Virus record (IMG/VR): IMGVR_UViG_2529293215_000009
Origin: a virus
Taxonomy: Duplodnaviria; Heunggongvirae; Uroviricota; Caudoviricetes
Reading direction: 5' to 3' (one strand)
Length of the DNA: 42,541 bases
Positions 2,911-16,930 of the stretch are shown one piece after another (position 1 is the stretch's first letter; every line of letters starts with the position of its first letter). A program made the translations under genes and the position numbers. The notes beneath the pieces were generated by a model that was given only the letters and a program-made list of their open reading frames with translations, was not told the origin of the DNA and searched no databases.

Positions 2911-5001
2911 ATGTATGTCATTGCAAAAGAACTGATTGGCGCGCCCGGAATGCCTGCTACAACAAAAGGTATTCGCCAGGCATTACAACGTTACGTACAA
3001 GGGAAAAGCTGTTGTTCCCGTCGTCGCTCAGGCTCTAAAGCAACTGAATACAGCATCGACTGTTTACCTGAAGTGACGCAGCAGGCATTACGTGAACGTT
3101 ATGCCCTGCAACTGATGACGCAAAAAGCCGATGAATCACCGGCTCCGGTAGTGACAAAGGCCAGGCGCTCACCTGCCGTGGTTGATGCGGTGGAGGCATA
3201 TCGCGGATCACCACAACTGATGGTCGAACGCCTTAATGCCCTGACTGAAAACCAGCGCCAGGTGGCTGATGCACGAATCGCGATCGTCAGCGAAGTTCTG
3301 AAAGTCGCGCAACAACCTGGTTTCAGCTGTGCGAAGGCTATCCGGTTTATCGTTGACAACCTGGCACGTTCGCAGCTGGACGAGCGCATTGTGGCAATGG
3401 TTGAGACGGCGAACGCCAAAAAGGGAAACAGCCGCGCGTTAAGTGAAATCACGCTGAAACGCTGGATTGCGGCCTTTAACAAGGCGCAGAACGCCGCTGA
3501 ACGCCTGCTTTTACTGGCACCGGGTAAGCGCCAGGAAATAAAAGCCGAAGATATTAACTGGCTGCCCGAATTTCTGGCGCAGTATCGCCAGTCAAACGGC
3601 CGACCAATGACCGAGGCTTACGAGGATTTTGTCGCTGAATGGCAGCACCGGCACGCTGATGAGCCTTATATGCTCGATATCATGCCGTCTTATGACACCA
3701 TTCGCCGCGCAATGAAGAAACTGCCGGAAGTGGTGAAACAAAAAGGCCGGGTGACCGGCAGTGAATACCGCCAGCTTGAGGGATTCACGCGCCGCGACTG
3801 GTCAAAAATGCCGGTGAATTATGTCTGGATTGGTGACGGTCACGGCATGAAGCTGAAATGCGCACACCCGGTTCACGGTCGGCCATTTGCACCGGAAGTG
3901 ACCTTTGTTATCGACGGTGGCACGCGCTTTGTGGTGGGCTGGAGCCTTGACCTGGCTGAAAATGTTTTCGCCGTAGCCGGTGCCATACAGCACGGCATTC
4001 GCCATCACGGCAAACCGTTTCTGTATTACTCGGATAACGGCTCCGGGGAAACCGCCGACATCCTGGATAAGGAGGTTGTGGGGATACTGCCGCGACTGGG
4101 GATTAATCACCCGACCGGGATTGCCGGTAATCCGCAGGGACGAGGCATTATCGAACGGCTTAACCGCACATTACCGATGCGCATAGCCCGTAAATACCGC
4201 ACCTATTTCGGGAAAGGTGCAGATCGCGAGACGTTACGCAAAACCAACCGCGATTTACGCTCGGCATTTACTGCCCTGCAACAGGGCAAACGGCTGAACG
4301 CCCGGCAGCAGTCAGCGATGCGTGATTTACCGTCCTGGTCTGAACTGATTGATGCCATTCGTGATGGTGTTGAGTGGTACAACAACCGGCCGCACGATGA
4401 ATTACCGGTGAAGCCGAACGGCAAGCATTACAGCCCGGCGGAGTTCAGAAAAAAACGCCTGGCGGAAGAGGACACGGAAATTGAATGGCTGTCCGATGTG
4501 GAATTGCGGGACATGTTCCGGCCGATGGTGGAACGCCCTGTAAGACGCTGTGAAATACGCTGGCTGAATAATATTTACTACGCGCCCGAGCTGCGTGATG
4601 AGCATGGCCGCAAGGTGCTTATCAGCTATGACATTCATGATGCCGAACGAATTACCGTACGTCGCCTGGATGGCAGCGTGATTTGCGAGGCGGTATGGGA
4701 CGGTAATAAACGCGAAGCCTTCCCGGTTAGCGCGGAATACTACAAACAGCAGCAACGCCTTAAAGGCATGCGTAAACGCGCAGAGGAAAAAATCCGTGAT
4801 GCCGAGGATGAGGTTGTCAACGTGCTGGAGCACAAGCCGCAGGAGCCCTGGCTGGAAAACATCTATCGCCCGGTAGGTAATACGGTGGCCGTTCAGCAAC
4901 CTGCCGTTGATGATGAGCCTGATGAAGAATACGAGCGCAATTTCCAGCGGGGATTGCAGTTGCTCGAAGCGAAATTAAAAGAAAATGACCCGCTGGCCTG
5001 A
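2911..5001 (+). CDS. A: Mu-type DDE transposase A
   Basis: 696 aa after ner; DDE-like blocks NYVWIGDGHGMK, LYYSDNGSGE, GNPQGRGIIERLNRTL; size and position as MuA. Confidence 0.9.
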   Translation: MYVIAKELIGAPGMPATTKGIRQALQRYVQGKSCCSRRRSGSKATEYSIDCLPEVTQQALRERYALQLMTQKADESPAPVVTKARRSPAVVDAVEAYRGSPQLMVERLNALTENQRQVADARIAIVSEVLKVAQQPGFSCAKAIRFIVDNLARSQLDERIVAMVETANAKKGNSRALSEITLKRWIAAFNKAQNAAERLLLLAPGKRQEIKAEDINWLPEFLAQYRQSNGRPMTEAYEDFVAEWQHRHADEPYMLDIMPSYDTIRRAMKKLPEVVKQKGRVTGSEYRQLEGFTRRDWSKMPVNYVWIGDGHGMKLKCAHPVHGRPFAPEVTFVIDGGTRFVVGWSLDLAENVFAVAGAIQHGIRHHGKPFLYYSDNGSGETADILDKEVVGILPRLGINHPTGIAGNPQGRGIIERLNRTLPMRIARKYRTYFGKGADRETLRKTNRDLRSAFTALQQGKRLNARQQSAMRDLPSWSELIDAIRDGVEWYNNRPHDELPVKPNGKHYSPAEFRKKRLAEEDTEIEWLSDVELRDMFRPMVERPVRRCEIRWLNNIYYAPELRDEHGRKVLISYDIHDAERITVRRLDGSVICEAVWDGNKREAFPVSAEYYKQQQRLKGMRKRAEEKIRDAEDEVVNVLEHKPQEPWLENIYRPVGNTVAVQQPAVDDEPDEEYERNFQRGLQLLEAKLKENDPLA

Positions 5002-9582: not shown

Positions 9583-10134
9583 ATGATGATTTTACAACCC
9601 ATGGGGCGAAAAGGCCGTGCACCCGCTCATGTCCGTGCGTGGACACCTGAAGAAGATGCACTGCTGATTGCGCTTTATCCATCCACCCCGGTTAAGGATA
9701 TTGCTGTCAGGGTAAAAAGAAGTTTCTGGGGTGTACATAACCGGATTGTTTTATTACGCGGTACTTACCCGGAGTTGCTCAAATGCAAACGTCCAAGATT
9801 TAAACATGATGAAGATAAATTTATCCGAAAAAATGCCAGAACGATGACCGGTAAGCAAATAGGAGAATATCTGGGGCGAGACCGGGATTCTGTCCACAAA
9901 CGGGCGCGATATATTGGCGTAAGCATGAAAAAATACGGAGAGTTGCTGCCCTTCACCCGTATACCTGATGATGATGTTCATCTTATTCGTGAATTACGGG
10001 ATGCTGAATCACCACGACGTCTTACCTTCCGGGAAATAGGCGAGAAATTTGAATTATCCGAGAGTACGGTGAATTTTATTTATCACCATCGCCGGACTGC
10101 CGAAGATGTTGTATTACGGGAGTTAATGCCATGA
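9583..10134 (+). CDS. hypothetical protein with three HTH-like repeats
   Basis: Three internally repeated segments (WTPEEDALLIALYPSTPVKDIAVRV, DEDKFIRKNARTMTGKQIGEYLG, DDDVHLIRELRDAESPRRLTFREIGEKF). Confidence 0.45.
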   Translation: MMILQPMGRKGRAPAHVRAWTPEEDALLIALYPSTPVKDIAVRVKRSFWGVHNRIVLLRGTYPELLKCKRPRFKHDEDKFIRKNARTMTGKQIGEYLGRDRDSVHKRARYIGVSMKKYGELLPFTRIPDDDVHLIRELRDAESPRRLTFREIGEKFELSESTVNFIYHHRRTAEDVVLRELMP

Positions 10135-10442
10135 TAACGACATTATTTGTTGAATCAGACGAGCCTCTGGTATGTGCCGCCGGAATGTCGGTTTGTGGCG
10201 GAACGCTGACCGGTGTTTATTTCGGGGATTTGCGCGGTTATCCCTGGCATTCACTGGATGACGCATTTCCGCCTGATATGGAGGCTGTCGTGCTGATTGT
10301 TCAGTATGGTGACCAACAGGAACTGCGCATCGGCCATATGGGGTATGAAGGCTTTTTTATTGATGAAGAAACCGGAGCCTGCCTTGAAGATGAGGACGGA
10401 CAGGTGACGCACTGGTGCCATATTTCAGCTTTACCGGAATGA
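10131..10442 (+). CDS. hypothetical protein (accessory early region)
   Basis: 103 aa; start overlaps upstream stop (ATGA). Confidence 0.4.
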   Translation: MITTLFVESDEPLVCAAGMSVCGGTLTGVYFGDLRGYPWHSLDDAFPPDMEAVVLIVQYGDQQELRIGHMGYEGFFIDEETGACLEDEDGQVTHWCHISALPE

Positions 10443-10456
10443 CGGGAGGTGAATGC

Positions 10457-10807
10457 GTGAGAAGTTATATTGATAATGAAAAACTGAAGACAATCAGCGA
10501 CTGTCTTAGCTTGCTGGCAAAAATAAAAGAAACCATTGAAGAGATTAAATTTCAGCTTGAATACGAACCCTGTGGCGATGATACATGGCGTAACTCTGCC
10601 AGAAAAGCACTGGCTGTCTTTCAGAAACAACGCCGGACTGTTGAATACCGCCTTGCTGTATTGCGCCAGGAGGAAAAGGAAAGAAATATAAGACGTCATG
10701 AACTCGTTAATGATTTTCTTGTTCGTGAATTAAAGGAGCGTGTGCCGGAGTCGGTATTTTTTGAGTGTGAGGCTGTTGCCCGTAGCAAAGCACTGGAAAC
10801 TGATTAA
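10457..10807 (+). CDS. hypothetical protein (start uncertain)
   Basis: ORF 10415..10807; GTG at 10457 preceded by GGGAGGTGA; coiled-coil-like composition. Confidence 0.35.
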   Translation: MRSYIDNEKLKTISDCLSLLAKIKETIEEIKFQLEYEPCGDDTWRNSARKALAVFQKQRRTVEYRLAVLRQEEKERNIRRHELVNDFLVRELKERVPESVFFECEAVARSKALETD

Positions 10808-10819
10808 ACAGGCAGGTGA

Positions 10820-11155
10820 ATGATGAGTATTGAATTAAGATCGTCTTATGAATATCGTAAAATTCTCATCGCCGGAGGCATGAAACCGGAAGATGCAGAA
10901 AAAATCGTTTCTTTTATGGATAAAGAATGTGACAAACGGGATATGCCAGAAATTATTATGGATGACATGATTCTGCATTCAGCCGTAGCGTTAAGCCCGT
11001 TATGGATTGTGCATTCTCTTGCTGAAATTGCCAAAGGCACCGATAAACAGGCAGCTGTTGCTGCCCTTCAGACGCTTAATGAAATGCGTATATCTCCACG
11101 CCCGACATTAATACATATGATTCTGTCCAGCATGGAGGATAAAGCAAATGAATAG
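10820..11155 (+). CDS. hypothetical protein (accessory early region)
   Basis: 111 aa ORF. Confidence 0.4.
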   Translation: MMSIELRSSYEYRKILIAGGMKPEDAEKIVSFMDKECDKRDMPEIIMDDMILHSAVALSPLWIVHSLAEIAKGTDKQAAVAALQTLNEMRISPRPTLIHMILSSMEDKANE

Positions 11156-11345
11156 TCTACCCGCTGGATGGGCGCGGCCACTAATGGCCAGGAAGCATCA
11201 TTTTTTTAAAACAGGCGAAAATATCAGTATATGTGGACGGTGGTTATATCTGGCTCATAATCGCGAGCCGGATACATTTGAAAGCCCTGATGACTGTGCC
11301 GAATGCCGCAGAAGAGTGAATAAGGAGAAAGATAATGGACAATAG
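11148..11345 (+). CDS. hypothetical small protein, possible Cys-rich metal-binding
   Basis: 65 aa; Cys at ICGRW and DDCAECRRR. Confidence 0.35.
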   Translation: MNSLPAGWARPLMARKHHFFKTGENISICGRWLYLAHNREPDTFESPDDCAECRRRVNKEKDNGQ

Positions 11346-11631
11346 TTCTCTGTTGTTCTGGTGCTTATATATCACATCCTTTTTCGGCGCATTTGTTATT
11401 ACCCGGTGGTTATGTCGAAAAATCATCTGCTTTTTTGATAAAAGACATCCGGTTGAACGGGCGGCTGATGCGCTCATTCAGCAGGCCATTGTGTTATATA
11501 GCGGTGAATTTTTCTGCCGGATAACAACCAGAGATGGCTGGCACATAATGATTATTCCACCAACACACCATGCCCGGTGGGATGAGGCAGAAAAGGCTTT
11601 CCATGTCCGTAAAAAGGTAAATACGGTATGA
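11335..11631 (+). CDS. hypothetical small membrane protein
   Basis: 98 aa; hydrophobic N-terminus LLFWCLYITSFFGAFVITRWL. Confidence 0.35.
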   Translation: MDNSSLLFWCLYITSFFGAFVITRWLCRKIICFFDKRHPVERAADALIQQAIVLYSGEFFCRITTRDGWHIMIIPPTHHARWDEAEKAFHVRKKVNTV

Positions 11632-12137
11632 GAGGAAAACTGATATCCGCCATTCATGTGGCAAAGCGCGAGCTTGCCCTGGATGATGAGACTTATACAT
11701 CCGCGCTGCTGGCAGCCACCGGCAAAACCAGCTGCCGGGATATGTCACCGGATGAGTTATCCCGCGTGCTGGATGTTTTCAAAAAACGCGGTTTTAAAGT
11801 GCGTCAGAACCCGGTTAACCGGGCCTTAAAACCGGGTACGGTGACCGCCAAAATTCGCGCCATCTGGAAGGTGATGCACCGGCAGGGCTTTATCACCGAT
11901 GGTGCGGAAACCGCCCTTAACCGCTGGGTGAAATCGCAGACGGCCGCGCAGAACGGCGGCGAAGGTGTGGCAAACTGGCAGTGGCTGGAGCAACACCCCG
12001 CCCTGGCCTCAGATGTGCTGGAGCGTCTCAAGCGATGGCACCGCCGCAAAATGCTGGCCGCGATGGGAATGCCCGAACGCACGCTGATGGGGTATGACGC
12101 CGTTTGCAGGCAGTATGAAAAATCACTTCCCCGTTAA
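11628..12137 (+). CDS. gemA: GemA-like protein (Mu gp16 family)
   Basis: N-terminus LISAIHVAKRELALDDETYTSALLAATGKTS...FKKRGFKV matches the conserved gp16/GemA pattern; sits just before mor as in Mu. Confidence 0.75.
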   Translation: MRGKLISAIHVAKRELALDDETYTSALLAATGKTSCRDMSPDELSRVLDVFKKRGFKVRQNPVNRALKPGTVTAKIRAIWKVMHRQGFITDGAETALNRWVKSQTAAQNGGEGVANWQWLEQHPALASDVLERLKRWHRRKMLAAMGMPERTLMGYDAVCRQYEKSLPR

Positions 12138-12142
12138 CCCCA

Positions 12143-12172
12143 AATCCCGCCACAACGCGGGATTTTTATTTT
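12143..12172 (+). terminator. intrinsic terminator at end of early operon
   Basis: AAATCCCGC cacaac GCGGGATTT hairpin followed by TTTTATTTT, right after gemA stop. Confidence 0.65.
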
Positions 12173-12206
12173 AAACTTACCGGGAACGCGAGAACCGGAG
12201 GCTGAT

Positions 12207-12632
12207 ATGGCAGAAACTCAGATGAGCATGTTTGGTGGTGACAGTGAGCAACTGCACGCCCTTATCGACCGCCTTGATGACATCCCTGATGATGTTCTCA
12301 AAAAGAACTGGCCGCGGACCCTGTCAGAACTGGTTGAAGTCACCGGCGCAGAACTTCAGCGTCAGGGGATTGAGCCGGTACTGGCCGGTAAACTGGCACG
12401 CAAGGTGGCTGCGGCTCAGGCAGCCTATATGGGCGGACGGGGTTATTACCTGCCGGTCGGGGAATCTCTCTTTGCCGAGCTGCGAAACAATGAGATATTT
12501 TCGCGCTGGGACCGGGGCGAGAAAATTGAATCCCTTCGCCGCCATTACCGGATGTCAGAAACCCAGATTTATACCGTCATACGTGAACAGCGCCGTCTGC
12601 ATCTGGCAAGAACGCAACCGCCACTTTTCTGA
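12207..12632 (+). CDS. mor: Mor/C-family transcriptional activator
   Basis: 141 aa; LRNNEIFSRWDRGEKIESLRRHYRMSETQIYTVIREQRR parallels Mu Mor IRDLRIWNDFNGRNVSELTTRYGVTFNTVYKAIRRMRR. Confidence 0.8.
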   Translation: MAETQMSMFGGDSEQLHALIDRLDDIPDDVLKKNWPRTLSELVEVTGAELQRQGIEPVLAGKLARKVAAAQAAYMGGRGYYLPVGESLFAELRNNEIFSRWDRGEKIESLRRHYRMSETQIYTVIREQRRLHLARTQPPLF

Positions 12633-12703
12633 TATTCCGCAAAGCCTGCCGCCTTTCCTTCACCGTTACGCTGACTCAGAGAACATCATGAGACAGCGTA
12701 ACA

Positions 12704-13204
12704 ATGCCAAAACTCCCCGCACCACTGCGTAAAAAGCTGATTGCCCTTGTTCTGGCCGGTGCCGGGACGTTCACGATTGCCACGCATTACACCGGTTACT
12801 GGGAAGGGAAAGAAAACTCCACGTATATCGATCCCACCGGTACACCCACCATCTGTTACGGCCATACCGGCCCGGATGTGAAACCGGGTATGACCCTGAC
12901 GGATGAAGAATGCCTGGAACTACTGGAAAAGGACATGAAATGGGCCTTTGCGGCCATTGATCGGCGTGTTCAGGTGCCGCTTACCCGTGGTCAGACTGTG
13001 GCGCTGGCTTCGTGGATCTTCTGGGCCGGTGAAACGAACTTCCGCAACTCCACGCTTCTGCGCCTGATCAATGCCGGGCAGATGCCCGCGTCCTGTAAGC
13101 AGTATATCCGCTGGATTTATTCAAAGGGGGTGAAACTCCCCGGCCTTGAGGCCCGCCGTTCGGCGGATGAATGGTTATGTCGCTACGACTTGCCGAAAGT
13201 CTGA
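12704..13204 (+). CDS. lys: endolysin (lysozyme-like) with N-terminal signal-anchor (SAR type)
   Basis: Hydrophobic N-terminus KLIALVLAGAGTFTIATHY then E-x8-D-x5-T lysozyme catalytic spacing in EGKENSTYIDPTGTPTICYGHT. Confidence 0.8.
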   Translation: MPKLPAPLRKKLIALVLAGAGTFTIATHYTGYWEGKENSTYIDPTGTPTICYGHTGPDVKPGMTLTDEECLELLEKDMKWAFAAIDRRVQVPLTRGQTVALASWIFWAGETNFRNSTLLRLINAGQMPASCKQYIRWIYSKGVKLPGLEARRSADEWLCRYDLPKV

Positions 13205-13316
13205 ACCGCTTCTGGCGACCGCTCATGATAGCGCTGCTGTGTGCGGTACTGCTGTTACGGGGTGTCCTGTGGCTGCGGTGAATAATGCCTTACCGGCCCT
13301 GATTGCCGGGGCGTGC

Positions 13317-13667
13317 ATGGCGGCGCTGGGGATTATCGCTGTACTGGTTGCCGCGATATGGGGAATGCACCAGAAGACGCAGCGCCTTGAAGACAATAAT
13401 CAGGTGCTTGTGCGTGAGCGGGATGAGGCGCGTCAGGTGCTGGCAAATCAGCAGCACACCCTGCAACTCATTTCACAAATCAGTGAGGCGGCCACGAATG
13501 AAAAACAACAGAACATTCAGCACAGCGAGGGGCAGCAGAGCGTTGTCCGCCGGTCGCTGGCAGCAGTGCCTGCGGCCTCTGCCCCTGTTCCTGATGATGT
13601 GGCTGATCGGGTGCGCCGGGCCGTCTGTGAAATACGTGCCTGTGAAGCCGGTGCCGATCCCCGCTGA
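13317..13667 (+). CDS. i-spanin (Rz-like)
   Basis: N-terminal TM MAALGIIAVLVAAIW followed by coiled-coil-like QRLEDNNQVLVRERDEARQVL; directly after endolysin; start chosen at first ATG after lys. Confidence 0.55.
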   Translation: MAALGIIAVLVAAIWGMHQKTQRLEDNNQVLVRERDEARQVLANQQHTLQLISQISEAATNEKQQNIQHSEGQQSVVRRSLAAVPAASAPVPDDVADRVRRAVCEIRACEAGADPR

Positions 13668-13869
13668 ATGGCTGGCTGACTGCCTGGTCCCTCCTGCGCC
13701 GGAGCCGTTCACGTTTGGGGCATCGGTCACTTACAACCTGCAACTGCTGGCGGTGATCAAGAACTGCAACGTGGACAAGGCCAGTATTCGTCGTCTGGAG
13801 ACGCGGCGACAACATGAATTTACTGATATGGCCGGAACGCCTGCTGTTCCGGCAGGAAAAACGAAGTAA
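13498..13869 (+). CDS. o-spanin candidate (Rz1-like lipoprotein), overlapping i-spanin in another frame
   Basis: Alternate-frame ORF with lipobox-like LIGC and proline-rich mature region (VKYVPVKPVPIPAEW...PPAPEP); start uncertain. Confidence 0.45.
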   Translation: MKNNRTFSTARGSRALSAGRWQQCLRPLPLFLMMWLIGCAGPSVKYVPVKPVPIPAEWLADCLVPPAPEPFTFGASVTYNLQLLAVIKNCNVDKASIRRLETRRQHEFTDMAGTPAVPAGKTK

Positions 13870-13878
13870 GGAAAAGGT

Positions 13879-14106
13879 ATGGATGATTCAGATCGTGCTC
13901 AGGCTGTGATGGAGCGGGGATCAGAACGCGCCCTTTGTAACCGGCTGACACGTAAGCGCCAGGCAGTGGATACGCCGGGCAGACGTGTCTGCGCGGACTG
14001 TGGCGGAGAGATCCCCGCCGCACGTCTTGTTGCTGTGCCTGATGCCATCCGTTGTGTGAACTGCCAGAACATCATGGAGGCCCGTAATGTGGGTCAGCAT
14101 CGTTAA
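13879..14106 (+). CDS. TraR/DksA-family C4 zinc-finger protein
   Basis: 75 aa with CADCGGEIPAARL...IRCVNCQ four-Cys arrangement typical of TraR/DksA. Confidence 0.6.
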   Translation: MDDSDRAQAVMERGSERALCNRLTRKRQAVDTPGRRVCADCGGEIPAARLVAVPDAIRCVNCQNIMEARNVGQHR

Positions 14107-14395
14107 AGATTATGTTGTGCCGATCCTTTCGGCGACGGCAACCGCTGGCGGGATATTCATGGCGCTGATGCGCAAAACGTTTGTCCCCCGCGAGGCCTTT
14201 GAAAAACTCTCCGACCGCGTTGAGAAGGTGGAAACCCGCCTGTCGTCACTGCCGACAGAAGCCGAGGTCAACCGTCTGAATGTGGAAATCGTGACCCTGC
14301 GGGGTGAACTGAAAACCACGAACGCCACGCTCCGCTCTGTCTCCTATCAGAACGAACTGCTGCTGGAGCAGGCTGTAAGGAAAAAAACGCAATGA
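14087..14395 (+). CDS. small membrane protein (positional equivalent of Mu gp25)
   Basis: 102 aa; N-terminal TM VVPILSATATAGGIFMALM then coiled-coil; lies between lysis genes and terminase genes. Confidence 0.4.
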   Translation: MWVSIVKDYVVPILSATATAGGIFMALMRKTFVPREAFEKLSDRVEKVETRLSSLPTEAEVNRLNVEIVTLRGELKTTNATLRSVSYQNELLLEQAVRKKTQ

Positions 14396-14682
14396 GTGAT
14401 TTCATTACTGAAGATCAGCGTCTGGTCATTCTGCGGTCGCTGGCAGATTACAACGGTGAACTGGGTGAATCCGTGCTCCAGGACTGTCTGGATGATTACG
14501 GCCACCGCGTGTCCCGCGACACCGTTCACACCCACATTGCCTGGCTTGCCGAGCAGGGACTGGTGCGCAAACGCGTTCTGATTAACGGTTATTTCATCGC
14601 AGAGCTGACCGGCCGGGGGCAGGATGTGGCGGAAGGCCGGGCCTGCGTTCCGGGTGTGAAGAAACCACGCGCAAGGGGGTAA
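14392..14682 (+). CDS. hypothetical protein (Mu gp26 position)
   Basis: 96 aa ORF translationally coupled to neighbours, just upstream of small-terminase-like gene. Confidence 0.45.
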   Translation: MSDFITEDQRLVILRSLADYNGELGESVLQDCLDDYGHRVSRDTVHTHIAWLAEQGLVRKRVLINGYFIAELTGRGQDVAEGRACVPGVKKPRARG

Positions 14683-14684
14683 CG

Positions 14685-15266
14685 ATGGACAAGCCGACGC
14701 GTGGTCGTGTACGCAAGGTGGATTTGCTCCCCGACAGCATCCGTAAGCCGCTGCTGGAAATGCTGCGTGAAAAACGTCTGACGCAGGTCCAGATCCGCGA
14801 GGAAATCAACCGTCTGATCCGTGAGGCGGGCCTGCCGGAAGAGCAGCAGCTTTCACCGGCGGCCATCAGCCGGGAAGCCTCCCGTAATGAGCTGATTGCC
14901 CGTAACCTGCGTGATTTACGCGAGCAGACAAAAGCCATGATGGCCGAACTGGGGGACAAGCCAACCGGTGAAACCACAGCGCTGATTCTGGAAATGTCCC
15001 GCGCCCTGATGTACCGCCGCCTGCGTGCCGCGACCGAATCTCTGAACAGCGACAGCGACGTGGATATGCGCCTCATCAAAGACATCCTCCTGTCAGCACA
15101 GCGTGCGGAAAGTGCCGCCGAGCGCAGCATTAAGCGTGAAAAAGAAATCCGGGCCGCATTTGCTGAAGAGATGGCAAACGCGGTCACCGACGAGCTGCGC
15201 GGCGTGGACGGGATGAGTGAACAGCTTGAGTCCCGTATTAAGGGGATTCTGTTGGGTAAAGCCTGA
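14685..15266 (+). CDS. terminase small-subunit-like protein (Mu gp27 position)
   Basis: 193 aa, basic N-terminus, immediately upstream of large terminase with overlapping stop/start. Confidence 0.6.
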   Translation: MDKPTRGRVRKVDLLPDSIRKPLLEMLREKRLTQVQIREEINRLIREAGLPEEQQLSPAAISREASRNELIARNLRDLREQTKAMMAELGDKPTGETTALILEMSRALMYRRLRAATESLNSDSDVDMRLIKDILLSAQRAESAAERSIKREKEIRAAFAEEMANAVTDELRGVDGMSEQLESRIKGILLGKA

Positions 15267-16930
15267 TGAATAACGCCGAAGAACTCTCACCCTTACTGAC
15301 GAATACCGTCTCCACCCGCAAAATTGATCTGGCCGGTGAAAAAGCCCTGCTGGGCGTGGATGTGCCGGACAGCCTTGATTTGCCCGGTGATATGCCGGTG
15401 TTTCTGGATTATCAGGCCCGCTGGTTTGAGGATGAAAGCGAGGTCTGCATCGCGGAAAAATCCCGCCGTACCGGGCTTACCTGGGCGGAAGCCGGGCGTA
15501 ACGTCATTACCGCTGCAAAACCGAAGCGGCGCGGTGGCCGCAATGTGTTTTATGTGGGGTCAAAGCAGGAGATGGCGCTGGAATATATTTCTGCCTGCGC
15601 ACTGTTCTCCCGTGCCTTTAACCAGCTGGCAGATGCTGATGTGTATGAGCAGACCTTCTGGGATCGGGATAAAAAAGAAGAAATTCTGACCTACATGATC
15701 CGCTTTCCGAACAGTGGATTCAAAATTCAGGCACTGTCTTCCCGTCCGTCAAACCTGCGCGGCCTTCAGGGGGATGTGGTGATTGATGAAGCCGCGTTCC
15801 ACGAGTCACTGGATGAGCTTCTCAAGGCGGCAATGGCGCTCACCATGTGGGGCGCGCGCGTGCGTATTATCTCCACGCATAACGGCGTCGATAATCTGTT
15901 TAATCAGTACATTCAGGAAGCCCGCGAGGGGCGCAAGGATTACAGCGTCCACCGCATTACCCTGGATGATGCCATTGCGGACGGGCTGTACCGTCGTATC
16001 TGTTATGTCACCGGCCGCGAATGGTCGCCGGAAAGCGAGCAGAAGTGGCGTGATGATCTCTACAAAAACGCCCCGACCCGTGAGGATGCCGACGAGGAAT
16101 ACGGCTGTATCCCGAAAAAATCCGGCGGTGCCTATATTCCTCACGCGCTTATTGAAATGGCGATGATCCGCGACATCCCGATTCTGACGTTTGAAGCCCC
16201 GGACGACTTCATCAGCCGTGCCGCATGGCTGCGTGAATCGGAGGTTTTAACCTGGTCTGAAGAACATTTAAAACCGCTTTTAGAGGCGTTAAATCCCCGT
16301 TCCCGCTTCAGCTTCGGGGAAGACTTTGCCCGCACCGGTGACCTCTCCTGCTTTGTGCTGCTGGAAATCACTGAATCCCTGGCAAAACGCGAGGTGTTTC
16401 GCGTGGAGCTGCGTAACCTGCCATATGCCCAGCAGGAGCAGGTGATGATGTACATCCTGACCCGCGTTCCGGCCCTGGTTGGTGCAGCGTTCGACGCCAC
16501 CGGTAACGGCGGCTATCTGGCCGAAGCCGCGCTGCTGGCCTTTGGCCCGGACATCATCGACAGCGTGATGTTATCGCCGAAGTGGTACGGCGAGTGGATG
16601 CCAAAACTGAAGGCCGAGTTTGAAGATCAGAATATCCTCGTCGCCCGCCATCAGACCACGCTTGATGATTTGCGCCATGTGAAGGTGGTTAACGGTATCC
16701 CGCAAATCGACAAGGGGCGTACGAAGGACCAGAACGCAACGGCTGTGAACGCCCGCCGCCATGGTGATTTTGCCGTGGCGCTCTGTATGGCAAACCGGGC
16801 GTCATACATGGAGGGCTTCATCCTGGATGAATCAGCCTGTCAGGCGCTGCCGGAGCGGTCGCGGGCAATAGAGGGCGGTTATCGTGATGACGATGAGGCA
16901 TATCATGAATTTGATCGGGGGTGCTGGTAG
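15266..16930 (+). CDS. terminase large subunit (Mu gp28-like)
   Basis: 554 aa; position between small terminase-like gene and portal; acidic nuclease-like motifs (VIDEAAF). Confidence 0.8.
   Translation: MNNAEELSPLLTNTVSTRKIDLAGEKALLGVDVPDSLDLPGDMPVFLDYQARWFEDESEVCIAEKSRRTGLTWAEAGRNVITAAKPKRRGGRNVFYVGSKQEMALEYISACALFSRAFNQLADADVYEQTFWDRDKKEEILTYMIRFPNSGFKIQALSSRPSNLRGLQGDVVIDEAAFHESLDELLKAAMALTMWGARVRIISTHNGVDNLFNQYIQEAREGRKDYSVHRITLDDAIADGLYRRICYVTGREWSPESEQKWRDDLYKNAPTREDADEEYGCIPKKSGGAYIPHALIEMAMIRDIPILTFEAPDDFISRAAWLRESEVLTWSEEHLKPLLEALNPRSRFSFGEDFARTGDLSCFVLLEITESLAKREVFRVELRNLPYAQQEQVMMYILTRVPALVGAAFDATGNGGYLAEAALLAFGPDIIDSVMLSPKWYGEWMPKLKAEFEDQNILVARHQTTLDDLRHVKVVNGIPQIDKGRTKDQNATAVNARRHGDFAVALCMANRASYMEGFILDESACQALPERSRAIEGGYRDDDEAYHEFDRGCW

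Follow-up and report, generated by a model that had tools for sequence, protein, structure and literature searches.

Lysis cassette of a Mu-like E. coli prophage: kinship with the lysis genes of phage Mu and an unannotated reading frame for a small membrane peptide

The cassette and its relation to phage Mu

The DNA discussed here, IMG/VR record IMGVR_UViG_2529293215_000009 (42,541 nucleotides (nt); the window), holds a complete Mu-like transposable prophage of E. coli in its 42.5 kb. Its positions 12704-14395 are the lysis cassette of this prophage and belong to the late operon. The cassette comprises genes for an endolysin (lys), an inner membrane spanin (i-spanin), an outer membrane spanin (o-spanin), a zinc-finger protein and a DUF2730 protein, and in addition a small open reading frame (ORF) between lys and the i-spanin gene (Table 1). 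A lysis cassette had been placed at these coordinates in a preliminary description based on the sequence. All ORFs listed there are present at the positions given, far beyond chance, and family matches and synteny with phage Mu confirm the assignment.

Table 1. Genes and reading frames of the lysis cassette and the activator gene upstream of it (aa, amino acids; TMD, transmembrane domain; SAR, signal-anchor-release)
Feature	Position	Strand	Product length	Matches and remarks
Mor/C-family late transcription activator	12207..12632	+		Pfam Mor E=3e-32; directly upstream of cassette
SAR-type GH24 endolysin (lys)	12704..13204	+	166 aa	Pfam PF00959 Phage_lysozyme E=6e-37; PHROG 7 endolysin E=8e-51
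Small ORF	13177/13171..13281	+	34 aa MSLRLAESLNRFWRPLMIALLCAVLLLRGVLWLR (36 aa from ATG 13171)	one TMD; unannotated
i-spanin	13269..13667	+	132 aa from GTG 13269	PHROG 214 Rz-like spanin E=2e-32
o-spanin	13498..13869	+	123 aa from conserved ATG	Pfam LysC PF23793 E=6e-16; PHROG 3001 E=7e-42
TraR/DksA-type C4 zinc-finger protein	13879..14106	+	75 aa	Pfam zf-dskA_traR E=3e-12; TIGR02419 E=4e-22
DUF2730 protein, homologue of Mu gp25 "releasin"	14087..14395	+	102 aa	Pfam PF10805 E=7e-20; PHROG 736 E=9e-32

The genes follow the order of Mu genes C-22-23-23.1-24-25-26-27, with the cassette downstream of a C-type activator and upstream of gp26 and gp27. All five cassette proteins are homologous to their Mu counterparts (27-40% identity), and the products of the two genes after the cassette are 63% identical to Mu gp26 and 57% identical to Mu gp27. 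The divergence is too great for Mu and the window to be aligned by nucleotide BLAST, yet the proteins are collinear. The likeness extends to the SAR-type N-terminus of the endolysin with its basic cluster, to the o-spanin gene, which overlaps the i-spanin gene and runs beyond it, and to the lack of a holin.

The lysis genes of Mu have been characterized experimentally. Mu gp22 is a SAR endolysin, and gp23 and gp23.1 form a spanin pair of the overlapped type (Chamblee et al., mBio 2022, PMC9239132). Mu is holin-less, since none of gp19, gp20 and gp25 passes the energy-poison test for lethality (PMC9239132). The founding DUF2730 protein, gp25, was termed "releasin", as gp22 needs it to escape from the inner membrane, and the dependence of gp22 on releasin is due to its basic residues K6 and K7 (PMC9239132). 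A pinholin also releases gp22, deletion of gp25 abolishes timely lysis, and gp22 and gp25 together suffice for lysis, which is delayed rather than triggered by depolarization (PMC9239132). The puzzle of the missing holin is thus already accounted for by the published work on Mu (PMC9239132).

By analogy, the cassette in the window most likely operates as the one in Mu does, without a holin and by means of a SAR endolysin, a releasin and spanins. The cassette would then need no new biology, and would represent the Mu releasin paradigm of 2022 in a prophage lineage that is widespread in E. coli, Shigella and Citrobacter. Prophages that are 99.5-99.7% identical to the 2.7 kb around the cassette are present in 231 of 5426 complete E. 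coli genomes, among them many Shiga-toxin-producing strains (STEC).

The endolysin

The lys product and Mu gp22 are 39% identical over 165 aligned columns. The catalytic motif is E34-x8-D43-x5-T49, with the glutamate 7 residues past the membrane segment. The N-terminus, MPKLPAPLRKK, contains four basic residues (K3, R9, K10, K11) and continues directly into the membrane segment LIALVLAGAGTFTIAT (residues 12-27, nt 12737-12784), which is weakly hydrophobic, with Ala, Gly or Thr in 9 of its 16 positions. This layout of a basic cluster followed by a weak TMD is kept in all related clades. In a PDB search, the nearest solved structures were the SAR endolysins R21 (3HDE) and RrrD (4ZPU), with E ~1e-24. 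Both alignments begin at lys residue 5, and therefore include the anchor.

The homology to Mu gp22, a proven SAR endolysin, and to R21 and RrrD supports the reading of lys as a SAR endolysin, which would remain uncleaved and would be released from the membrane by depolarization, a pinholin or a releasin. The preliminary description had regarded the N-terminus as a signal anchor rather than a cleavable signal, and the same alignments, which run through the anchor in the case of R21 and RrrD, speak for this view. The phage 21 and DLP12 enzymes share with lys the GH24 lysozyme with its E-D-T triad and, presumably, the membrane-tethered inactive precursor. Their release, however, is timed by the depolarizing two-TMD pinholin S21-68. 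The window has no such gene, and has a DUF2730 protein instead.

Two differences from gp22 concern the N-terminal region. The SAR segment of lys lacks the run of six Gly residues seen in that of Mu, and K6/K7 of gp22 are replaced by R9-K10-K11. The endolysin and the DUF2730 protein of the window, 39 and 35% identical to gp22 and gp25, respectively, can thus provide a second test system for the releasin model, in which the basic cluster is located elsewhere. With its shifted cluster, the pair offers a natural way to test the published proposal that releasin dependence is dictated by how charges are arranged at the SAR N-terminus.

The spanin pair

The i-spanin is 27% identical to Mu gp23. It has an N-terminal TMD (…MAALGIIAVLVAAIWGM; Kyte-Doolittle 2.8) and a periplasmic domain that is presumably helical. 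There are several candidates for its start codon. The preliminary description had used ATG 13317 (116 aa), and RefSeq uses GTG 13239. The match to Rz-like spanins upholds the identification of the gene, but its start is most likely at GTG 13269, judging from conservation. Among the five clades compared, a CGGGG Shine-Dalgarno sequence followed after 6-9 nt by ATG or GTG is conserved at this place. Upstream of it, the i-spanin frame has a ratio of nonsynonymous to synonymous substitutions (dN/dS) of ~2 (13206-13277) and is hence probably noncoding, whereas the variation in 13282-13316 falls mostly on third positions of the i-spanin frame, as fits coding there. ATG 13317 is preceded by a GGGG Shine-Dalgarno sequence in the window and by GGAGG in close relatives, and is a possible second start.

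Other starts were considered and rejected. A Mu-like overlap with lys, with initiation at ATG 13167 or TTG 13146, is at odds with the dN/dS of ~2 in this frame and with a stop codon in one clade (L047). The RefSeq start GTG 13239 has no Shine-Dalgarno sequence and lies in a place without conservation. With its start at GTG 13269, the i-spanin gene of the window differs from its Mu counterpart in position: it starts ~65 nt downstream of the lys stop codon, whereas Mu gp23 starts inside the 3' end of the endolysin gene.

The o-spanin is 40% identical to Mu gp23.1. Its gene lies in the +1 frame, starts inside the i-spanin gene, and overlaps it by 170 nt before running 202 nt past its stop. The lipobox LIGC, which we take to fit the PS00013-type pattern, has Ala in the +2 position after Cys39 (codon 13612-13614), and the mature part of 85 aa contains 11 Pro residues. 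The earlier recognition of a proline-rich lipobox ORF that overlaps the i-spanin gene in another frame and outruns it was thus correct. Counted from ATG 13498 (MKNN…), the cysteine is beyond the usual range of 15-35; it would be Cys24 if TTG 13543 were used. ATG 13498 is the only o-spanin start that is conserved in all clades, and initiation at the internal TTG is possible. The RefSeq LysC start at GTG 13627 can be dismissed, because it falls after the lipobox cysteine.

The pair resembles the phage P2 LysB/LysC and lambda Rz/Rz1 pairs, which likewise combine an i-spanin whose TMD is N-terminal and an o-spanin that is a Pro-rich lipoprotein, with its gene in the +1 frame. The overlapped architecture is that of P2, and the o-spanin of the window falls into the Pfam LysC family. 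Lambda Rz1 is wholly embedded in Rz, whereas the o-spanins of the window, P2 and Mu extend past the i-spanin stop. In comparison to the P2 and lambda proteins, the o-spanin of the window has a signal peptide with an unusually long basic n-region, provided that the conserved ATG is used.

Database annotation of the pair is systematically off. For the window and related loci (L001 and L003-L007), RefSeq/PGAP names the i-spanin "endopeptidase" or "hypothetical", and has its start at 13239 or 13317 depending on the genome. The LysC start is placed 15-31 nt past the lipobox cysteine in the same set, which results in 80- or 72-aa versions of the protein. Corrections of the o-spanin start, the "endopeptidase" name and the misplaced i-spanin start would reach hundreds of RefSeq records.

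The DUF2730 protein

The preliminary description had flagged 14087..14395 as a transmembrane protein. This is confirmed, and the protein can be identified as a DUF2730 member and releasin homologue. Its residues 6-97 match PF10805 positions 3-101/102, which is the full length of the family, TMD included, and over 91 aa it has 35% identity with Mu gp25 (E=5e-17), which is of type I as opposed to types II and III. The single N-terminal TMD (residues 9-28, YVVPILSATATAGGIFMALM, nt 14111-14170) is followed by R29-K30 and a cytoplasmic domain of 74 aa; the N-out/C-in topology is deduced from the positive-inside rule only. A PDB search with the protein gave no meaningful match. The TMD is weakly hydrophobic, rich in Ala, Thr, Gly and Ser, and SAR-like in this respect, whereas the TMD of Mu gp25 is more hydrophobic.

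The features ascribed to releasins are an N-terminal TMD, Arg-Arg or Arg-Lys at the junction of membrane and cytoplasm, a gene no more than five genes downstream of that for the endolysin, and a likeness to gp25 of type I (PMC9239132). The DUF2730 protein of the window has all of them: the TMD, the RK junction, a gene in the late operon that comes fifth after lys if the small ORF is included, and the type-I similarity. By analogy to gp25, the protein would free the SAR endolysin from the inner membrane. A comparison of lysis by the cassette with and without this gene, as proposed in the preliminary description, corresponds to the experiment that has been published for Mu gp25 (PMC9239132).

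The search for a holin

The preliminary description had found no class I or II holin. This conclusion is borne out by a hydropathy scan of the window, by family scans of limited extent, and by searches with Mu proteins. In the hydropathy scan, which covered all ORFs of 25 aa or more on either strand of the whole window, no small protein with 2-3 TMDs was found in a plausible gene. The Pfam, PHROG and NCBIfam scans, which covered the cassette proteins and nine others (single-TMD candidates and early-region ORFs) rather than every ORF of the prophage, did not detect a holin family. Searches by tblastn with Mu gp18, gp19 and gp20 did not find homologues in the prophage. The middle operon of Mu is wholly missing except for the C-type activator, so that the prophage differs from Mu in the absence of the TM genes 19 and 20 and of a separate Mor gene.

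The only single-TMD proteins are the DUF2730 protein, the small ORF product, a 98-aa protein (11335-11631) and a DUF1378 protein (38809-38991). The 98-aa protein, encoded just upstream of gemA, has a strong N-terminal TMD (LLFWCLYITSFFGAFVI) and belongs to PHROG 17269, which is of unknown function; it has no Pfam match, and no Mu counterpart in the compared region. In principle, it or the DUF1378 protein could be a holin encoded outside the cassette. Both are small proteins with a single TMD, and in Shiga toxin (Stx) phages DUF1378 is encoded directly upstream of the holin-endolysin-spanin genes. Nevertheless, such a distant holin appears most improbable. Neither candidate matches a holin family. 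The 98-aa protein is encoded in the early or semi-essential region, and the DUF1378 protein in an accessory region beside com/mom; in Stx phages, DUF1378 accompanies a separate bona fide holin and does not replace it. Moreover, the non-late TM proteins gp19 and gp20 of Mu have been tested and are not holins (PMC9239132).

One locus retrieved in the searches (L043, 38% lys identity) was left out of all comparisons, because it represents an unrelated phage with a holin, a SAR endolysin and embedded spanins.

Proposed mode of lysis

A Mu-type course of lysis would begin with the single Mor/C activator, which would switch on the late lys operon. The endolysin would be inserted by Sec, and the weakly hydrophobic SAR segment would tether the inactive enzyme to the inner membrane, with K3, R9, K10 and K11 likely to hold the N-terminus on the cytoplasmic side. 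The DUF2730 protein, cytoplasmic but tethered to the membrane, would accumulate and promote the exit of the SAR segment from the bilayer, a step that is obscure in molecular terms even in Mu. Once freed, the endolysin would refold in the periplasm and degrade peptidoglycan, as its lysozyme domain suggests. The i-spanin and the lipoprotein o-spanin are expected, from their homologues, to form a complex that spans the periplasm and disrupts the outer membrane. The timing of lysis would be set by the accumulation of endolysin and releasin, and not by the triggering of a holin. More speculatively, the 34-aa peptide may modulate SAR release or the energization of the membrane.

Several considerations weigh against this scheme. 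The window itself shows the homology and synteny, the sequence features and the lack of holin-like genes, but SAR behaviour, releasin dependence and spanin function are transferred from the experiments on Mu. K6 and K7 of Mu gp22 align with A6 and P7 of lys, and the basic cluster is shifted to R9-K10-K11, where it abuts the membrane segment. As the K6/K7 positions are not conserved, the dependence on the DUF2730 protein is an extrapolation. Membership in DUF2730 does not prove releasin function either, because in most DUF2730 families the partner endolysin has no SAR domain (PMC9239132). In the cytoplasmic domain of the DUF2730 protein, basic residues outnumber acidic ones (14 against 11, no His), whereas that of gp25 has been described as "predominantly anionic" (PMC9239132). 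This is a descriptive feature of gp25 and not a formal releasin criterion, and the same count for gp25 gives 12 acidic and 11 basic residues, so that the difference is modest. The small TM peptide could have a membrane activity of its own, and "holin-less" would then be wrong for this phage. Finally, lys has a possible signal-peptidase site, T-I-A↓T, after residue 26 (judged by eye).

The last point raises the alternative that the lys N-terminus is a cleavable Sec signal. The enzyme would then be soluble in the periplasm, and the role of the DUF2730 protein would be unrelated to endolysin release. The n-region, the h-region and the possible cleavage motif would fit a Sec signal, and DUF2730 families are mostly found in the company of non-SAR endolysins (PMC9239132). 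Still, we regard this alternative as very unlikely. The homology to proven SAR endolysins covers the N-terminal segment, the h-region is rich in Ala, Gly and Thr, and the combination of basic cluster and weak TMD is common to all related clades. An active muramidase that is secreted from the onset of late expression would also kill the host prematurely.

The small ORF between the endolysin and i-spanin genes

In the preliminary description, the protein encoded by 14087..14395 was considered the only nearby membrane candidate. This is not the case, as a TMD-encoding ORF of 34 codons (from 13177) or 36 codons (from 13171) had been missed. The longer version reads MVMSLRLAESLNRFWRPLMIALLCAVLLLRGVLWLR. 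From ATG 13177, the ORF shares its first 28 nt with the 3' end of lys, and it ends 13 nt into the i-spanin gene, with a stop codon (13279-13281) that overlaps the i-spanin start. The N-terminus of the peptide is basic, and within its strong TMD (Kyte-Doolittle 2.6-2.9) lies a conserved Arg-Gly. Mu has no such ORF at this place. The small ORF is thus the only new element of the cassette, the holin-less arrangement itself being known from Mu since 2022.

All seven RefSeq regions that were inspected lack an annotation of the ORF. Its exact sequence has no match among ~15 billion proteins, and the version of 48 aa from one clade has no word in common with any of 5.8 billion protein clusters. At the DNA level, it is intact in 72 loci, which encode 21 distinct peptides and fall into five clades with lys identities to the window down to 49% and i-spanin identities down to ~40%. 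The features that are kept are a length of 34-37 codons, the WR motif, the hydrophobic core and the C-terminal LRG(V/I)L(W/L)…, and the consensus can be written as M..R.A......WR-[11-13 hydrophobic]-LRGVLWL. The codons for LRGVLWL vary synonymously between clades (TTA/CTG/TTG, GGT/GGG/GGA, GTC/GTG, CTG/TTA/TTG/CTA). In the frame of the small ORF, the Nei-Gojobori ratio is 0.43 for the comparison of the E. coli with the Citrobacter-type clade and 0.57 for four clades, whereas it is 1.7-2.2 and ~1.0 in the other two frames. ATG 13177 is created by a lys Leu codon, TTA or CTA, in 20 of the 21 peptide variants; the exception keeps only the upstream ATG. TTA and CTA are the two rarest Leu codons. 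The codons for the Arg-Gly of the peptide, CGG-GGN, double as the i-spanin Shine-Dalgarno sequence.

The ORF is missing from Mu proper and from three Mu-like clades (L046, L050 and L102/L104 types), and in these the i-spanin starts, TMD included, inside the 3' end of lys. A scan of GTDB genomes with lys for further clades with the ORF gave a single locus, in Citrobacter braakii. A scan of IMG/VR with a degenerate DNA pattern returned only contigs that were already known and chance matches, and thus no further clade. In one sequence (L031, identical to L113 and L206; IMGVR_UViG_2526164665_000023), lys and the small ORF are fused (…DEWLCRYDLPKSLNRFWRPLMIALLCAVLLLRGVLWLR) as the result of a 1-nt deletion shortly before the end of lys; the fusion is either natural or due to an error in sequencing.

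Two relationships between the small ORF and the i-spanin gene were considered and rejected. A recent tandem duplication as the source of both TMDs is not supported, as there is no DNA similarity past the 13-nt physical overlap. A programmed -1 frameshift from the small ORF into the i-spanin gene would require a slippery heptamer, which is not found at 13269-13281, and the fusion product would, as deduced from the sequence, have the periplasmic domain of the spanin in the cytoplasm.

On the strength of the conservation, we consider that the small ORF is probably a real gene, albeit with appreciable doubt, and that it is probably expressed. It is conceivable, although we would not favour it, that the ORF has no function as a protein, and is either a relic of an ancestral i-spanin N-terminus or a bridge that couples translation to the i-spanin start at 13269. 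The geometry is classic for coupling, since the stop codon lies on the conserved i-spanin start, and the start in the 3' end of lys. The ratio of nonsynonymous to synonymous polymorphism (pN/pS) of 0.4-0.6 does not indicate strong constraint, and the ORF has never been called by any gene caller. In addition, the C-terminal LRGVLWLR bears a weak likeness to the sequence with which the i-spanin TMD ends in clades without the ORF (SGGLWHR in Mu gp23, GGWLWQR in L046), which suggests that the small ORF may descend from an ancestral i-spanin N-terminus. A pure bridge, however, would need no more than an open frame. What has been kept, even though the neighbouring i-spanins are only ~40% identical, includes hydrophobicity, a length of 34-37 codons, and the WR and LRGVLWL motifs. 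Synonymous changes have also built up specifically in the frame of the small ORF.

If the peptide is made, its role is a matter of speculation. In a tentative scenario, an enterobacterial subgroup of Mu-like phages carries a sixth lysis gene, expressed as a single-TMD peptide of 34-37 aa that acts in lysis control, either by modulating SAR release with or against the releasin, or as a minimal depolarizing trigger. The otherwise holin-less system would then regain a timing element, and the peptide would be a small regulator of a new class for lysis that does not depend on a holin. It would also serve to recall that reading frames of ~35 codons in lysis cassettes are systematically missed.

A more radical proposal is that the cassette is not holin-less at all. 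The 34-aa peptide would be a minimal holin, a pinholin-like or toxin-like depolarizer or an antiholin-like regulator, which triggers or times SAR release, with the DUF2730 protein as an auxiliary. Collapse of the proton-motive force releases SAR endolysins, and single-TMD peptides of 20-50 aa, such as type I toxins, can depolarize membranes. The location of the ORF in the late lysis operon between endolysin and spanin genes, its conservation in five clades with a coding signature in its own frame only, and the strong TMD with the intramembrane Arg-Gly and basic N-terminus would all be in keeping with such an activity. Nonetheless, we judge the proposal unlikely. Known holins and pinholins have at least two TMDs, or one TMD and a large periplasmic domain. 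Mu and several Mu-like clades have the same set of endolysin, releasin and spanins without the ORF, which is therefore inessential to the mechanism, and depolarization in Mu delays lysis instead of triggering it. The constraint indicated by the pN/pS values is moderate, and part of the conserved motif (CGG GGN) does double duty in i-spanin translation initiation.

Neighbouring genes and prophage setting

The gene between those for the o-spanin and the DUF2730 protein (13879-14106) has the position of Mu gene 24 within the cassette. Its product is weakly similar to the zinc finger of Mu gp24 and, as a difference from Mu, is a clear member of the TraR/DksA family. In a part of the Citrobacter-type clade (L034, L035 and L040), ~250-300 nt with an ORF are inserted between the o-spanin and TraR/DksA genes (~3620-3950 in locus coordinates); the insertion is not present in the window.

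The activator encoded upstream of the cassette (12207-12632) is presumed to act on the lys promoter. It is the sole Mor/C-family activator of the prophage, and is nearer to Mu C (40% identity) than to Mu Mor (27%). As there is only one Mor/C gene, and homologues of Mu 18-20 are missing, the two-step cascade of Mu, from Mor to C, seems to have been cut down to a single activator. A strong, terminator-like hairpin (12142-12165) separates the activator gene from gemA. A sigma-70 promoter scan of 12100-15300 did not find a promoter, as expected for late promoters that are activator-dependent.

The prophage as a whole contains a repressor/Ner region, the transposase genes A and B, Gam, GemA, the Mor/C-family activator, the lysis cassette, gp26/gp27/terminase, Mu-type genes for head, tail and baseplate, an invertase and com/mom. 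The accessory region between the last two (36623-39272) has adjacent genes for a DUF6645 protein (679 aa), the DUF1378 protein (60 aa, one TMD) and a DUF826 protein. In Stx-converting phages, a DUF1378-DUF826 pair (53% protein identity) is found directly upstream of holin-endolysin-Rz/Rz1, after a large ORF of ~1.9 kb that is annotated there as a pseudogene. In the window, the DUF6645-DUF1378-DUF826 module is present without any holin.

The 2.7-kb cassette region is 98.9% identical at the nucleotide level to a "Mu-like phage" that sits inside two Stx-converting phages. The prophage of strain 13E0780 (L003) is otherwise 99.7% identical to the window, which has ~467 nt extra at 10134-10820, where the 13E0780 prophage has a frameshifted pseudogene. 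The 13E0780 copy is inserted in the type VI secretion gene icmH/dotU, and other copies are found inside Stx phages. The sites of the window and 13E0780 prophages differ, which fits active Mu-like transposition.

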